From positions 23,112 to 87,111 of the IMG/VR virus record IMGVR_UViG_3300005613_000027: a DNA stretch of 64,000 bases; one strand, written 5' to 3'. Under the pieces are notes generated by a model. The model was not told the DNA's origin, did no database searches, and saw nothing but the letters and a program-made list of their open reading frames with translations. Positions 14,664 through 63,449 of this stretch are shown one piece after another. Each line of letters starts with the position of its first letter. Within the stretch, counting starts at the first letter, position 1. The DNA is from a virus. A program made the position numbers and the translations under genes.

Positions 14664-15900
14664 TGAACTACCACGAAACTAAAGATTTCGTGGTTTCCTG
14701 CTTCAATGGAAAACTATAGTCTTCCTCCACAGGCATGAATTCGGGTTGTCCCATCCCTATTTTTTTTATATTATTACTTGCTAATATATCCCTATCATGA
14801 GTTGTATTGCAGTTAGAGCAAGTCCATTCTCTATCACTAAGTTTCAATTTATGATTGATTTCCCCGCAAGAACATAACTTACTGCTTGGTTCATATTGAC
14901 CAATTTGTATGAAGTTCTTGCCATACCAGTCACACTTGTACTTGATCATAGAAACAAACTCACCCCAACCTACATCACTGATTGATTGAGATAACCACCT
15001 ATTTTGTTGCATTCCCTTTATATCAAGGGTTTCCATAACAAGGGTGTTCGTTTGGTTATCACGAACTAAGGTAGTAGAAACCTTGTGGTGGAAATCTTTT
15101 CTTGCATTAGTTACTTGTTCATATTTACGAGCAAGTTTAACTTTTGCTTTTTGTCTGTTATTGCTTCCTTTCTGTTTTCTTGCTAGGTTGCGTTGACTTC
15201 GTTTGAGTGCTTTCAACTTATGTTTCAAGTAACGAGGATTATCTATCTTTTCTCCTTTACTTGTAGTAAGAAAGTGAGATATTCCAAGATCTATTCCAAT
15301 AGTAGTATCTCCACTCATTGGTGCTTTAGTTGGTAACTCTTGTCCATCTTCAACTAAAATAGAGATATAATATTTACCAGTTGGAGTTCTACTTATCGTA
15401 CAAGTTTTCATTTCTCCATCAAACTTACGATGAGCATCAAACCTCAAGTTTTTAATTTTTGGAACTTGTATTGTTTTTGTTTCGAAATCTATTTTAGTTG
15501 TAGAAGAAGGAGGGATCTCAAATGATTGGTTTGAATTATGTTTAGATTTGAACTTAGGGAAACCTTTCTTTTCACGAAAGAATCTAACATATGCCATATC
15601 TAAGTGGATCAAACTTGCTTGTAATGTTTGAGAATTAACTTCAGATAACCAATTGGTTTCTTCTTGTTTTTTCATTAGTGGAAGTTGTTTCTGAATATCA
15701 AACCTACTTAGTGTTTTCTTTTCTTGTTCATAGATCTTAATTTTTTGACCAAGTGCGTAGTTATAGATAAAACGAGAACAACCTAAGTGTTTTTCAATTA
15801 ACACTCGTTGTTCCTCGTTTGGGAATAATCTATATTTGTATGCTTTTAACATTCCTATTGTTTCCTTACATCTCTATTTATAATAATTATCTATATATTT
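14664..15900 (-). mobile_element. IS200/IS605-family non-autonomous element (tnpB only); left end approximate
   Basis: Right-end hairpin ACCACGAAA-TCTTTAG-TTTCGTGGT followed by AGTTCA. Confidence 0.75.
14668..15852 (-). CDS. tnpB: RNA-guided endonuclease TnpB
   Basis: KAYKYRLFP HTH start; RuvC motifs GIDLG, VMETL and HDRD; zinc finger. Confidence 0.95.
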   Translation of the reverse strand: MLKAYKYRLFPNEEQRVLIEKHLGCSRFIYNYALGQKIKIYEQEKKTLSRFDIQKQLPLMKKQEETNWLSEVNSQTLQASLIHLDMAYVRFFREKKGFPKFKSKHNSNQSFEIPPSSTTKIDFETKTIQVPKIKNLRFDAHRKFDGEMKTCTISRTPTGKYYISILVEDGQELPTKAPMSGDTTIGIDLGISHFLTTSKGEKIDNPRYLKHKLKALKRSQRNLARKQKGSNNRQKAKVKLARKYEQVTNARKDFHHKVSTTLVRDNQTNTLVMETLDIKGMQQNRWLSQSISDVGWGEFVSMIKYKCDWYGKNFIQIGQYEPSSKLCSCGEINHKLKLSDREWTCSNCNTTHDRDILASNNIKKIGMGQPEFMPVEEDYSFPLKQETTKSLVSW

Positions 15901-19109: not shown

Positions 19110-19373
19110 CTACACCTCCTCCACACTGACGTATTTTTTACACTCAGTGCATATCATTCCTATTGTGTTTATAGGAACAGACGCTATGTGACCACAATCT
19201 TTACATTCTACGTTATTATGTCTTTTTGGTTTACTTGGTTTAGAAAATGTAAAGGGCAAATTACCATGGTCATCTACAAACTTACTTTCTCTGTGAATTC
19301 GTTCATTATGTTTTTTTACACCCTTTTCAGGTTCCCATCTTCTCTTAGTTACACCTGGATCTAATACCGCCAT
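19110..19373 (-). CDS. Small zinc-finger protein
   Basis: CKDC...CTEC. Confidence 0.55.
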   Translation of the reverse strand: MAVLDPGVTKRRWEPEKGVKKHNERIHRESKFVDDHGNLPFTFSKPSKPKRHNNVECKDCGHIASVPINTIGMICTECKKYVSVEEV

Positions 19374-20811
19374 TCCTTTTCTCCTTATTCTTGTTGTATT
19401 TTAAGTTGCCACAATCCCAGATCCTATTCCATCCCTGTAAAACCCTATTTTCCCATTCAGTAAGTGTTTGGTCATCATTATTGTTTTTTCTTAAATTAAA
19501 TCTATGAATTCTTTTATATTTATTTCTGTCACTAAAATACCAATAATTTGGGGGTGTAATGGAATTTAGGTTAAACCCTAATTTTATATATAAATCACCA
19601 ACTGACCATCTCCGATCAGCATAAGAAAATATTTCTGACCAATCATAATTTCTCTCAAAATATTTTAATAGTTTTGATGCGCCGCCAACTACTTGATAAT
19701 TTATTTTAGAACAAAATCTGTTTAATTCCCAAACACTAATTAAAGAATTCTTGGCTCCTTTAGAAATAGATGGTTTTGAAAATGTCATGGCAGAAACCAT
19801 TTCTTCTTTATAAAAAAGACCTAATTTAACACTAGAACCATTATAACCCTGTAAATGATTTTCATTAAAAAAACTAGCTGCATCATTAGTACTTATTTCT
19901 CTGATAGAACAATTTCTGGCATAAACAATATTCGTATTATTCTCACCTAATATGCTTAACAACCTAGATAACACAATGTCTTTATTAAACAAAAATTCAT
20001 CTTCAAATATAGTAACAAGCCTATATCCAATCTCCTTACATCTAACTAGTTTATTTAAATGATATACACTATCTTTACCAAATAACTCTGAGTGCCACCT
20101 AATACCACAATACTCAATAGCTAATTTTTTACTTGGTATTACAATATCAAGTTCATAGGGTGGTATTAGTGTTTTATCATTAATAAATAAATCAGATTGT
20201 GTAACTACATTATTTAGAAACACAGCTAAAGTTTTTTCTACTCTTGATGTATTATTACTACATTTTTTACATCTACTATTATTAGTAAACCAGTTAAACC
20301 AACTAGATATATACACATGTCCATTAGGACATAATAACTTTATTCTACTCCTAGAACTTTTATATTCACCTTCAATATATTTATACCCCTCTAACTCAAC
20401 ATGTTTTATAAAGACATCTAAATAATTATCCTTACATTTATTTGACACACAAAAAACACATTTATTTTTCTTCCTAGACCACGCACTCCAAATTACACTA
20501 TTAATACCACCACATTTATCACATTTATAATATATCTTTTGTTTACTACTTTTATATTCATTTGTCAATAATGTAAACCCCTCACTATTAACTATATTAC
20601 GCACATCATTTATATTAGAAAAACGATTAAATGCACATAATTTACATCTCTGACCCACCAACCATTTTTCTAAAGATATTTCTCCTTTATGCCCAGCTGG
20701 ACAAATATACTTCAATTTTTGTTTAGTGTTTATATAATAAGTAGTTAAAAGAATATAATTATTTTTATTAAAAACTTCTTTTACAAAATTTATATCATAT
20801 TTTCTATTCAA
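19345..20811 (-). CDS. Putative free-standing homing endonuclease (zinc modules plus PD-(D/E)xK/Vsr-like domain)
   Basis: CPxGH repeats; ELDIVIPSKKLAIEYCGIRWH; C-terminal ELNRFC...GGASKLL...SYADRRWS domain. Confidence 0.75.
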   Translation of the reverse strand: MNRKYDINFVKEVFNKNNYILLTTYYINTKQKLKYICPAGHKGEISLEKWLVGQRCKLCAFNRFSNINDVRNIVNSEGFTLLTNEYKSSKQKIYYKCDKCGGINSVIWSAWSRKKNKCVFCVSNKCKDNYLDVFIKHVELEGYKYIEGEYKSSRSRIKLLCPNGHVYISSWFNWFTNNSRCKKCSNNTSRVEKTLAVFLNNVVTQSDLFINDKTLIPPYELDIVIPSKKLAIEYCGIRWHSELFGKDSVYHLNKLVRCKEIGYRLVTIFEDEFLFNKDIVLSRLLSILGENNTNIVYARNCSIREISTNDAASFFNENHLQGYNGSSVKLGLFYKEEMVSAMTFSKPSISKGAKNSLISVWELNRFCSKINYQVVGGASKLLKYFERNYDWSEIFSYADRRWSVGDLYIKLGFNLNSITPPNYWYFSDRNKYKRIHRFNLRKNNNDDQTLTEWENRVLQGWNRIWDCGNLKYNKNKEKRNGGIRSRCN

Positions 20812-52103: not shown

Positions 52104-52607
52104 ATGACTGTTGAAAGAAAAGAACCAGACGAATTAACTCATGGAGGATTCAAATTCCGTAACTGGGGTATTGACTCTATCAGTCCAAACGTTATAGCCA
52201 ATTTCTGTTCTGGTTTAGATAAGGACAAATTTGACCGAATAGACATGATGGGGGATACCGAACCTGAGGATACAATTGTAATAACATATTCAGAATCAAT
52301 CACTAAGTTCTTAACTGGTGATGTTTGGCAATCAGAAAGTAGATACGATACTGTTGTTTGGTTGTACCCCACAACTAAAGCATGGACATGCTCACTGTTC
52401 ATTTACTTAGACAGCGGTGATCCCATTGTCCATAAATTCATAGACTCACAGGATGAGAACAAGTATGAACCACCTAACTGGTTGCGTATGGATTATCAAA
52501 AGTTAAGAATGATAGATTTCGTTCGCTGGAGTGGGTGGGCTATGTCAGAAGTGTTTGAGGAGATAGCTAAAAACATTAGATATGCTCTAATGTATGAAAG
52601 GAGGTGA
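52104..52607 (+). CDS. Hypothetical protein (start MTVER)
   Basis: AAAGGAGGT RBS. Confidence 0.55.
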   Translation: MTVERKEPDELTHGGFKFRNWGIDSISPNVIANFCSGLDKDKFDRIDMMGDTEPEDTIVITYSESITKFLTGDVWQSESRYDTVVWLYPTTKAWTCSLFIYLDSGDPIVHKFIDSQDENKYEPPNWLRMDYQKLRMIDFVRWSGWAMSEVFEEIAKNIRYALMYERR

Positions 52608-52611
52608 TATC

Positions 52612-52905
52612 GTGAGTACTCAACAACAACCGGAAGCCGCGCCACTACAATGTTTTGAATGTGGTGCCGAAGTAAAACGTCTGCCAGGTACACCTGAGGA
52701 CATGGAAGAAAGTATGTGTCCTGCGTGTATCAAGAAGTTCCCATTAGCTATGTGTCATGGGTGTCCTGCTGAACGTCAGACAAAAGAAGTGGTAGGCGCA
52801 CACTTTGTCTGTGATAACATGGATTGTCCAAACGGTCTTAAAGAATTGGATAAAACATGCCATGACCGTAAAAATTGGCTCTTTCATGATGGCACACTAC
52901 GTTAA
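52612..52905 (+). CDS. Cys-rich zinc-binding protein (GTG start)
   Basis: AAAGGAGGTGAT RBS; CFEC, CPAC and CHGC. Confidence 0.55.
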   Translation: MSTQQQPEAAPLQCFECGAEVKRLPGTPEDMEESMCPACIKKFPLAMCHGCPAERQTKEVVGAHFVCDNMDCPNGLKELDKTCHDRKNWLFHDGTLR

Positions 52906-52935
52906 GGAAGGGAGGTGATAACTATCAAATAATCA

Positions 52936-53118
52936 GGTAGGAAAGAGCAGGGGTCAATGGGATTGGGATCCGAACCGGCCCCTGCTCCCACCTGTTCTGT
53001 ACACAAACCATTCGTAGGAGTGGGAAGCGGCACTCACGGTCTACCCAGGTTTGTGTGCAGTACAGGTGGTTGATACCATCTAGCGTAATTCTGCCCGCTA
53101 TAAGCAGAAACAACTACT
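52936..53118 (+). ncRNA. Unassigned structured RNA candidate (two long stems plus H-type pseudoknot)
   Basis: Stems 52945-55/52977-87 and 52988-53009/53048-69; TAGCG/CGCTA crossing TTCTGC/GCAGAA. Confidence 0.55.
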
Positions 53119-53159
53119 TCCAAGGAGGTGTTATTATGGATGATACCACCTCGCTAAGC

Positions 53160-53244
53160 TAACATGGCAAACCCATCGTAAGGTGGGGGCGCAAAGCCAC
53201 GGGGGCCCGCCGCACTCACTGGGTAGGGGCTAGCCGGGTTGTTA
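53160..53244 (+). promoter_or_regulatory. Cyclic-di-GMP-I (GEMM) riboswitch aptamer
   Basis: GGCAAACCCATC-GTAA-GGTGGG-GGCGCAAAGCCACGGG...TAGCCGGGTTG matches the GEMM consensus; G at the position equivalent to Vc2 G20. Confidence 0.8.
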
Positions 53245-53391
53245 TTCATGATCACAGGCAATCATATATGTGAGTCTATTCCTTATCATGATCTCTAAAT
53301 TGCCAAAAGGAATTGTGATTATGCTGCCGCTTAGCGAACGGAAGACAAGGGTAGTTAGGACAAATAAACTCCTAACCAATAGAGCCACTCT

Positions 53392-53445
53392 GTGGAGTAC
53401 CACGCACACTGTGGAGGACTACCCACAACGTGGAGGACTACCCAC
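53392..53445 (+). repeat. GTGG..CCAC mini-hairpin repeats (16-bp direct repeat at 53411 and 53430; shorter variant at 53392)
   Basis: GTGGAGGACTACCCAC twice and GTGGAGTACCAC. Confidence 0.85.
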
Positions 53446-53542
53446 TGAGCGGATAGGGGAGGACAGGATTACATGAACCGTTTTCCTTATATAAGAACTG
53501 CATTTTAAAGTACAACTTTATGAGAACTAAGGAGGTGATATC

Positions 53543-53728
53543 ATGGCAGGATTAGTAGAAATGGCCACTCCCAATGGATGGTTATCTACATCAGAAGAAC
53601 AAGAACAAAGTGGATTTAAGTTTGTTAAGAACCACCAGGTACTGGCTTCTGATGTTAGAAAAACTAAGAAAAAGAAAAAGAAACGTAGAAAAATTGTTGC
53701 ACGATCACGTGCACGTAATCGCAAGTAA
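53543..53728 (+). CDS. Small protein with very basic C-terminal tail
   Basis: AAGGAGGTGAT RBS; RKTKKKKKKRRKIVARSRARNRK. Confidence 0.6.
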   Translation: MAGLVEMATPNGWLSTSEEQEQSGFKFVKNHQVLASDVRKTKKKKKKRRKIVARSRARNRK

Positions 53729-54115: not shown

Positions 54116-54358
54116 ATGCCGAACAAACAACCGTTTATAACAACCTACCTGGCATGTGTTGGGTGGAAGGCACAACTGATTGTATGGAATGAAGATGAGC
54201 AGATCTGGGAGCCTTGGCAGACCAGTTTCTTTGCTTATGGAACGGAAGAAGAGGCTGAATGCTACGGTGTAAGCTGGGCAGAAGCCGAGGGAATTGAATT
54301 TCAATACAGAAATAAGGAACGGAAGGAGGTGAATTCACAATGTATTATACTGGCGTAG
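54116..54358 (+). CDS. Hypothetical protein (start MPNKQ)
   Basis: AAAGGAGGTGAT RBS. Confidence 0.55.
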   Translation: MPNKQPFITTYLACVGWKAQLIVWNEDEQIWEPWQTSFFAYGTEEEAECYGVSWAEAEGIEFQYRNKERKEVNSQCIILA

Positions 54359-54939
54359 GAGCAAGGGCAACTCCTGCTCACATACTGCAGCTTATGACAC
54401 AGATTGCAGTTAAACTTGCTGCTTTAGGGTGGACTCTACGCTCAGGTGGTGCAGCAGGAGCAGACTTGGCATTTGAACAAGGTGCTACATTAAAGCAAAT
54501 CTTCCATGCTAATATGGCCACTGAACAGGCTATGGCCATAGCGGCGGCATTCCACCCTGCATGGAACAAGATGGGGTCTTATGCTCAAAAACTTCATGGA
54601 AGGAATGCTTTTCAAGTGCTTGGACCATCACTATGCGAGCCATCGACGTTCTTGGTGTGCTGGACACCTGATGGATGCCCTGCATGGAACAAGATGGGGT
54701 CTTATGCTCAAAAACTTCATGGAAGGAATGCTTTTCAAGTGCTTGGACCATCACTATGCGAGCCATCGACGTTCTTGGTGTGCTGGACACCTGATGGATG
54801 CAAATCTCACGCCACCAGAACACGCGCTACTGGCGGCACTGGTACTGCTATATCCATCGCTTCACATTATCGTTTGTCAATAAACAATTTGGCAAATACT
54901 GAAACCTTCAACATATGGACAGCTTGGCTGCAAAGATAA
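54340..54939 (+). CDS. SLOG-superfamily (DprA-like) protein with an in-frame 41-aa duplication
   Basis: YTGVGARATP; LRSGGAAGAD; RNAFQVLG; GGTGTAI. Confidence 0.75.
   Translation: MYYTGVGARATPAHILQLMTQIAVKLAALGWTLRSGGAAGADLAFEQGATLKQIFHANMATEQAMAIAAAFHPAWNKMGSYAQKLHGRNAFQVLGPSLCEPSTFLVCWTPDGCPAWNKMGSYAQKLHGRNAFQVLGPSLCEPSTFLVCWTPDGCKSHATRTRATGGTGTAISIASHYRLSINNLANTETFNIWTAWLQR
54556..54801. repeat. Exact 123-bp tandem duplication
   Basis: Unit encodes PAWNKMGSYAQKLHGRNAFQVLGPSLCEPSTFLVCWTPDGC, present twice. Confidence 0.95.
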
Positions 54940-62440: not shown

Positions 62441-63373
62441 ATGGCTGGAACCTCAAATGGGTTCTTCAAGGCAAATGCAGTCGGCGGACGTGTCGGCACA
62501 AATAAGGAAATCAAGATGACTTACACCCCGGCGCATATCAACGCCCAGGGCAAGAAAGTCAATGCTCGTCTGGTCATTCCGATACTGATCAACGAGTACG
62601 GCAGGAGCGAGCCGGACAGCTACCGGCTCATCGCATGGGGCAAGATGGCAGACATGTTTGCCAAAAACCTCAATAAAGGCAAGGAGATGCATTTCTATCT
62701 TACCGGATCCAGCTACTGGGGCGATGTATATTCCCACGTCGACGGGGTTCAGATGCTGGACAAGGACAACCGCCCGCTCCAAACCCGGCAGGTATCTTTC
62801 ATTATCCGTGATTTCGTCTGGGGTTCAGATGGTATGGACACGCTCATGGACGAAATAAACAACGGGATCGCCACAGGTGAAGGCCGGCGTCCGGCCCAAT
62901 GGAATTTCCCCGGAACGCCTGACAATCAGCTCTGGAAACAGATGCTTGCGGCCAGAACCAACACCTTCTTCAGCCAGGCTCATCTGCAGGCGGGTGTCTT
63001 CGGTTTTGCTCGGGTGCGTCCCCCCAAGGGCGGCGGTGCGATCCTTTTCGGTGCGCAGTATGAAAGAGAAGCCGTGATTAATGCCAACGGCCCGGCTCCG
63101 GCTCCGCCCCCTCCGACCGCCGCCCCCGGATATCCTGGAGCTGCAGTGATCGGAAATCAAGGAATGCCGGTTGATCAAGCAATCACCAATGCCTTCGGCC
63201 CGAATGCGCCGCAGCAATGCACCAAGTGCCAGACGCAGATTCCGGCAGGTGCAGGATTCTGCAGTGTATGCGGGACCCAGGCTGCTCCGGCTCCGGTTAA
63301 CGCGCCCGTTCAGGGCAATGCCGTGTACGGAGCGGCAGGCAATCATCCGGGCGGAGCGCCTGCTGATTACTAA
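62441..63373 (+). CDS. SSB-like OB-fold protein with Pro-rich linker and zinc ribbon
   Basis: YRLIAWGKMADMFAKNLNKGK matches the SSB motif; CTKC...FCSVCG; ends PADY. Confidence 0.7.
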   Translation: MAGTSNGFFKANAVGGRVGTNKEIKMTYTPAHINAQGKKVNARLVIPILINEYGRSEPDSYRLIAWGKMADMFAKNLNKGKEMHFYLTGSSYWGDVYSHVDGVQMLDKDNRPLQTRQVSFIIRDFVWGSDGMDTLMDEINNGIATGEGRRPAQWNFPGTPDNQLWKQMLAARTNTFFSQAHLQAGVFGFARVRPPKGGGAILFGAQYEREAVINANGPAPAPPPPTAAPGYPGAAVIGNQGMPVDQAITNAFGPNAPQQCTKCQTQIPAGAGFCSVCGTQAAPAPVNAPVQGNAVYGAAGNHPGGAPADY

Positions 63374-63407
63374 CCGCCCCATCATCACAATTCCTTATGG
63401 CTGAGGA

Positions 63408-63449
63408 CGGGAGGGCTGGCAGTTTTGCCGGCTCTCCCGAAATCTTTTT
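63408..63449 (+). terminator. Intrinsic terminator candidate
   Basis: CGGGAGGGCTGGCA-GTTT-TGCCGGCTCTCCCG followed by AAATCTTTTT. Confidence 0.6.

Follow-up and report, generated by a model that had tools for sequence, protein, structure and literature searches.

Tandem doublets of the c-di-GMP-I (GEMM-I) riboswitch (RF01051; clan CL00126) are the commonest tandem riboswitches, with 347 reported (PMC9481103). A second kind of structured RNA to be considered here are the classic RNase III targets of Bacillus, which are stable stem-loops with small internal bulges and of which the early mRNA of phage SP82 provides a known substrate (PMC4838370). The element described below sits in the plus-strand leader region of a phage, immediately upstream of a complete c-di-GMP-I aptamer, and can be compared with both. 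Our main reading, to which we assign a probability of about 0.4 for origin and role taken jointly, is that it represents the decayed and remodelled upstream member of a former tandem c-di-GMP-I pair, kept as a stable double-stranded RNA module with a role in processing, stability or insulation. To our knowledge, decay products of tandem c-di-GMP riboswitches have rarely been described.

Setting of the element

The window, i.e. the whole stretch of 64,000 nt that was analysed, is part of an 87-kb IMG/VR virus record with an estimated completeness of ~32%, the genes of which include a large terminase, a portal, a TnpB-like and an HNH/IscB-like gene. The large terminase shares less than 30% identity with its counterparts in Bacillus, Lactococcus and Clostridium phages, the ribosome-binding sites of the record are of the strong Bacillota type, and the host of the virus is likely a member of the Bacillota. 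On the minus strand, a TnpB-type transposase (14668-15852; phrog_506, E 3e-128) and a large HNH endonuclease (19345-20811; phrog_559, E 8e-106) are encoded; counting an IscB element recognized in the initial annotation, the phage holds several IS200/605-type nuclease genes, for which Rfam detected no guide RNAs, and none of the resident IscB and TnpB guide-RNA regions was seen to resemble the element.

From ~50.3 kb on, all genes lie on the plus strand with close spacing, and among these tightly packed genes the 637-nt gap that holds the element (52906-53542) is exceptional. It is bounded by a cysteine-rich ORF of 97/103 aa and a lysine-rich ORF of 61 aa, and its noncoding block has a GC content of ~0.5, with 0.52 in the structured windows over the element, as compared to 0.36 genome-wide. 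The flanking genes are ORFans: the upstream ORFs (52104-52902), of 167 aa and, for the cysteine-rich one, 97 aa, gave only self-matches among 5.8 billion proteins, an ENA contig of 2442 nt and a JGI contig of 1115 nt are listed for the protein cluster of these two neighbours, and searches with the flank proteins of 103, 119 and 705 aa brought up no close relatives among viral contigs. The features of the gap are as follows, all on the plus strand.

52911-52920, plus strand: orphan Shine-Dalgarno-like GGAGGTGATA, immediately 3' of the upstream ORF's stop codon and not followed by an ORF
52922-52940, plus strand: small local hairpin CUAUC/GGUAG, pair probability 0.91-0.92 (context 52800-53545)
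52945-52987, plus strand: hairpin 1, a GC-rich stem of 11 bp that includes one U-G pair, topped by a small GGAU/AUCC stem, probability 1.00
52988-53069, plus strand: hairpin 2, a 21-bp helix (8 bp, U.U mismatch, 13 bp) capped by two short inner helices
53004-53051, plus strand: putative aptamer-derived core of hairpin 2, comprising blocks A, B and C, without junction and P3 5' arm
53081-53109, plus strand: hairpin 3, UUCUGC/GCAGAA with a 9-nt loop, hairpin probability 0.9, with an optional 5-bp pseudoknot
53122-53163, plus strand: strong Shine-Dalgarno sequence and 8-codon mini-ORF, overlapping the 5' flank of the riboswitch, with Shine-Dalgarno and AUG in a predicted hairpin
53156-53246, plus strand: complete c-di-GMP-I riboswitch aptamer (Rfam 53.3 bits, gathering score 35, model positions 1-87), 87 nt downstream of hairpin 2

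The mini-ORF, with the product MDDTTSLS, ends within the riboswitch 5' flank, and a decayed direct repeat of it is found at 53066-53083. Further downstream, a possible 51-codon ORF (ATG at 53321, region 53307-53476) lies behind a weak AAGGA site, which can pair with AUUCCUU at 53277; possibly it is this ORF that the riboswitch really controls. The ORF is overlapped by a 19-nt direct repeat of ~3.2 copies (53385-53445). A perfect (100%) 123-bp tandem duplication (54555-54801), either a very recent event or an assembly artefact, is located 1.4 kb downstream of the element within a 199-aa DprA/SLOG-like ORF (54340-54939), where it repeats 41 residues in frame.

Scans of the region yielded no usable sigma-70-type promoters on the plus strand. 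It is possible to read TGTTATTAT (53129-53137), with the same letters as the mini-ORF region, as a candidate extended -10 element, which could start the riboswitch transcript 3' of the element, such that element and riboswitch need not share one RNA. Terminator-like sites are likewise absent from the plus strand within 52906-53542. Hairpin 1 was considered as an intrinsic terminator and rejected, given that it is followed by CCACCUGUUCUGU with no U-tract, and none of the other hairpins of the element is followed by a U-tract either.

Fold of the element

The hairpin structure of the element is beyond chance. The slice 52930-53125 has a folding energy of -83.6 kcal/mol (z -5.77), and none of 200 dinucleotide shuffles was as stable; in the natural-sequence control used beside the shuffles, consisting of 1739 GC-corrected 200-nt windows of the 87-kb record, two windows over the element rank first and second, and among the non-tandem inverted repeats of the 64-kb window the 22-nt one in hairpin 2 ranks first. 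Third among the 200-nt windows of the record in degree of structure is 63240-63440, with a GC content of 0.63, which lies inside a 310-aa ORF (62441-63373).

Both major stems described in the initial annotation were recovered by ensemble folding. The 11-bp stem of hairpin 1 is formed by 52945-52955 with 52977-52987, and it is directly abutted, with no linker, by the 21-bp stem of hairpin 2, built from an outer stem of 8 bp (52988-52995 with 53062-53069, pair probability 0.97) and an upper stem of 13 bp with one U-G pair (52997-53009 with 53048-53060, pair probability 1.00). In four sequence contexts the helix probabilities of hairpins 1 and 2 remained at 0.92-1.00. Of the two inner helices, each of 5 bp, the annotated GUAG/CUAC is retained as GUAGG/UCUAC (0.94), whereas GAGUG/CACUC proved to be an alternative register of the predicted GUGGG/CUCAC (0.92).

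The outermost parts of the fold are less robust. The helix (A)GGUAG/CUACU(U), which had been thought to close the whole unit, reached a probability of 0.78 only in the exact slice 52930-53125 and fell to ~0.01 in every larger context, where GGUAG pairs locally with CUAUC (52922-52926) and 53115-53121 is taken by the orphan Shine-Dalgarno segment 52911-52917 (pair probability 0.67). For the H-type pseudoknot, the pairing of UAGCG (53081-53085) with CGCUA (53096-53100) in the loop of the hairpin 53089-53094/53104-53109 is possible, but it is at chance level, with 6% of shuffles showing it under Watson-Crick pairing alone and 14% when G-U is allowed. The earlier wording 'multi-stem pseudoknotted' and 'closed' overstates the robust structure.

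The pairing between 52911-52917 and 53115-53121, together with that predicted between 53125-53130 and 53147-53152 (0.61, a Shine-Dalgarno/anti-Shine-Dalgarno pair), would suit an element that is a cis-regulatory part of the riboswitch leader. This could operate by alternative pairing, with the 3' arm of hairpin 2 (AGGUGG) or the anti-Shine-Dalgarno-like words CCACCU/CUUCC set against the two Shine-Dalgarno sequences, or as a two-hairpin antitermination signal, since an arrangement of two adjoining hairpins in an early-type phage operon is reminiscent of the put RNAs of HK022, although a put RNA is ~70 nt long and the element far larger. We regard a leader function of either kind as very unlikely: the probabilities of hairpins 1 and 2 stay close to 1.0 whatever the context, the predictions contain no competing fold, and the short complementarities are at chance level for the 800-nt region. 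Those dismissed on the latter ground comprise 8 nt between hairpin 2 and the aptamer P3 loop, 9 nt between 53151 and 53329, and 11/12 at 53215/53438.

The initial annotation had held that G-U pairs favour the plus strand. Indeed G-U accounts for all three non-Watson-Crick stem positions on the plus (coding) strand, but the argument is weak, as the minus strand folds at -79.6 kcal/mol (z -5.1), compared to -83.6 kcal/mol (z -5.8) for the plus strand, and has two extra G-U pairs inside hairpin 1. The plus strand is barely favoured by thermodynamics, and gene orientation is the better strand argument.

This near-equivalence of the two strands counts against our main reading, and it would be expected of an element acting at the DNA level, be it a protein-binding, recombination or replication site, or the scar of a 610-bp insert flanked by GGAGGTGATA. 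The identical 10-mer is found at 52911-52920 and again at 53531-53540, the two copies flanking the ~610-nt noncoding block, which may be an inserted 'moron'-like block or a recombination product of consensus ribosome-binding sites. The elevated GC content of the block and the roughly three copies of the 19-nt direct repeat downstream could be cited in the same sense. On the other hand, GGAGGTGATA is the consensus ribosome-binding site of the phage and is met again at many of its genes, the gap is adjoined by neither an integrase nor an initiator gene, the presence of a bona fide riboswitch shows that the gap works at the RNA level, and G-U is what the plus strand has at all non-Watson-Crick stem positions. 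A DNA-level function is therefore considered quite improbable.

Known families and the adjacent riboswitch

At gathering thresholds, Rfam 15 matched the riboswitch at 53156-53246 and no family for the element, and ARAGORN found no tRNA or tmRNA, in agreement with the initial annotation, which could place the element with neither tRNA, SRP, 6S nor a known ribozyme. Assignment to any Rfam 15 family, including 6S, SRP, ribozymes, HEARO, GOLLD and ROOL, was rejected, as no model matched. A retron or DGR reading was dropped on account of zero RVT_1 matches in the 87-kb record, itself ~32% complete. In permissive Rfam scans (1 kb; 211 nt) the element otherwise gives generic hairpin noise versus miRNA models. 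The exception is 53004-53027, which aligns locally with positions 12-35 of the 80 in the c-di-GMP-I-GGC model, corresponding to the P2 module, at 12.7 bits with E 1.4 (4227 families; 211-nt scan), a value that becomes ~1e-3 if the GEMM clan is taken as the sole prior hypothesis; a c-di-GMP-I match of the element does not appear among the matches of the permissive 1-kb scan. The resemblance of this segment to GEMM P2, pointed out in the initial annotation, is upheld by the local covariance-model match and by alignment to the neighbouring aptamer.

In this local alignment, three collinear blocks of hairpin 2 correspond to the aptamer at 53156-53246. Block A (53004-53024, CAAACC...GUGGG) is the GEMM P2 module, block B (53027-53037, GCSGCACUCAC) falls in the 17-nt P3 loop of the neighbour, outside the family consensus, and block C (53038-53051, GGKCUASCCRGGUU) is the P3 3' strand. 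In control comparisons, 19/1000, 5/500 and 3/500 shuffles, as well as 3/130 natural control windows, scored at least as high as the whole alignment, with p ~0.01-0.02 for the whole region. Block A alone was matched in score by 4/2000 shuffles and blocks B and C alone by 20/2000, the shuffle p values overall ranging from ~0.002 to 0.02; the per-block values are somewhat optimistic in that the blocks were set after inspection of the alignment. Direct duplication is preferred over convergence because the match falls inside the idiosyncratic P3 loop. The left flanks of the hairpin 2 core and of the intact aptamer both run from CCACCU to CAAACC. Nothing in the riboswitch unit corresponds to hairpins 1 and 3, which counts against our main reading. 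The aptamer appears to be a paralogue and, judged from the alignment, the apparent source of the hairpin 2 core; taken by itself, the derivation of hairpin 2 from an upstream c-di-GMP-I aptamer copy is probable. The perfect 123-bp tandem duplication 1.4 kb away is evidence that the region duplicates and, given the high frequency of tandem c-di-GMP-I doublets (PMC9481103), an ancestral doublet would be the natural starting point.

What is missing relative to the aptamer can be stated in some detail. The element fails the gathering threshold of the full c-di-GMP-I model. The conserved ACGCAAAGCC junction and a two-stranded P3 are lacking, as a segment of ~19 nt with the CGCAAAGCC junction and the P3 5' arm is deleted in the alignment, along with 7 nt of the P3 loop. 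A GNRA-capped P2 is not found, for CCAUUC/GAGUGG can pair but the loop reads GUAG where the aptamer has GUAA, and forcing the P2-type hairpin costs +9 kcal/mol relative to the minimum-energy fold, with an ensemble probability of 0.00. The helix joining the 5' and 3' flanks, i.e. the equivalent of P1, is present and hypertrophied to 21 bp. Because junction, P3 5' arm and GNRA loop are gone and the would-be P1 strands make up the 21-bp helix, hairpin 2 is predicted to be unable to form a c-di-GMP pocket and to be locked in one fold. A working tandem riboswitch doublet was rejected, since just one aptamer passes the model.

With the ligand pocket clearly broken, in an orphan lineage and in a region with a recent duplication (the 123-bp tandem), the element might be taken for a functionless duplication relic, its hairpins being by-products of, e.g., palindrome formation at the DNA level. 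Neutral decay, however, should erode complementarity, not create it, and the relic would have to account for a 21-bp helix with a single mismatch, for the top stability in 87 kb and for G-U at all three non-Watson-Crick stem positions on the coding strand; by reading of the sequence, the counterpart flanks of the intact aptamer make a short P1 only. We consider a functionless relic improbable.

The account given here is inferred from a single sequence, the element having no homologues in the phage, plasmid, viral, metagenome and genome collections searched. Blastn of 52880-53560 versus the phage collection gave no matches, and in viral contigs neither an exact 36-mer, a degenerate pattern of P2 plus GGGAAGCGGCAC, a pattern for the hairpin 1 loop nor an aptamer-specific pattern was found. 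The degenerate pattern had two metagenome and four genome matches, which were discarded as chance, lying in unrelated high-GC DNA with no further similarity. In plasmids, the blastn matches were confined to the aptamer core, in ordinary host riboswitches of Cohnella and Alicyclobacillus that have no similar upstream element, and a second copy was not found elsewhere in the record.

These searches bear on the proposal of an independent, previously undescribed small RNA gene, trans-acting or a ribozyme, which happens to neighbour the riboswitch or arose by exaptation of an aptamer copy for a new function. Such a gene would be in line with a fold more extreme than any other in the record, with a GC content well in excess of the background, with the compact size of the unit (~185 nt) and with the failure of known families to match. 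It is nevertheless unlikely, as no promoter-like or terminator-like plus-strand site brackets the element, no U-tract follows the hairpins, no ribozyme family or motif was detected at E up to 10, a second copy or relative is missing from the collections searched, and the core is accounted for by riboswitch paralogy. Of the three possibilities offered in the initial annotation, the degenerate tandem aptamer draws support from hairpin 2, a ribozyme is disfavoured (no Rfam ribozyme family at E <=10), and a new ncRNA found no backing in the form of homologues.

Proposed reuse of a decayed aptamer as a double-stranded module

Our main reading, a remodelled upstream aptamer copy kept as a double-stranded module, would proceed from an ancestral tandem c-di-GMP-I doublet, the upstream copy of which would have lost its ligand pocket while its P1 strands became a near-perfect 21-bp helix abutted by the 11-bp GC hairpin. 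The element would be co-transcribed with the riboswitch on the plus strand in a polycistronic message, and would be maintained for its double-stranded character, independent of ligand; maintenance of the helix is suggested because neutral decay would not create the most stable fold of the genome. It would most likely serve as an RNase III-type processing and stability site, or else as a folding insulator. Cleavage or insulation could then set the upstream cistron apart from the downstream RNA under riboswitch control, and protective hairpins would be left at the new ends. A role in processing, stability or insulation is favoured because hairpin 2 fits the classic Bacillus RNase III targets (PMC4838370) in length and form: it provides ~20 bp or more of near-continuous double-stranded RNA (8 + 13 bp, one U.U) in an intercistronic position within the 637-nt gap. 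Cleavage of hairpin 2 by RNase III is itself put forward purely by analogy with these targets.

A related proposal, that the aptamer copy was exapted into a new ligand-independent (or other-ligand) RNA forming a two-part control device with the intact c-di-GMP switch, has a low probability in our estimate; if true, it would constitute a documented case of evolution from an aptamer to a new function. For the double-stranded module, the apparent loss of the pocket and gain of a long stable helix suggest that aptamer sequence was put to a new, simply structural or processing use, in a phage that monitors the c-di-GMP signal of its host. If this holds, it would be a small but clear example of regulatory RNA recycling, and it would help to define the transcript controlled by the phage riboswitch.

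Compared with known systems, the locus resembles the tandem c-di-GMP-I doublets (RF01051; PMC9481103) in having two GEMM-related units in series on one strand and in one leader, the downstream unit being complete and the upstream one sharing with it the P2 module, P3-loop words and the P3 3' strand. It differs from them in that the upstream unit fails the model, has no junction, P3 5' arm or GNRA loop, and carries a P1-equivalent of 21 bp; unlike its counterpart in working doublets, it cannot be a second sensor. With the RNase III hairpins of phage polycistronic mRNAs (T7 R1.1-type; SP82 early mRNA, PMC4838370), the element has in common a stable stem-loop between cistrons, roughly two helical turns long and interrupted by small internal irregularities, placed in a phage operon of a likely Bacillota host, a likeness drawn here from sequence and predicted fold. 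There is no sequence relation to these hairpins, and the apex is not a simple loop but a branched, putatively aptamer-derived cap, with a second hairpin abutting the stem.
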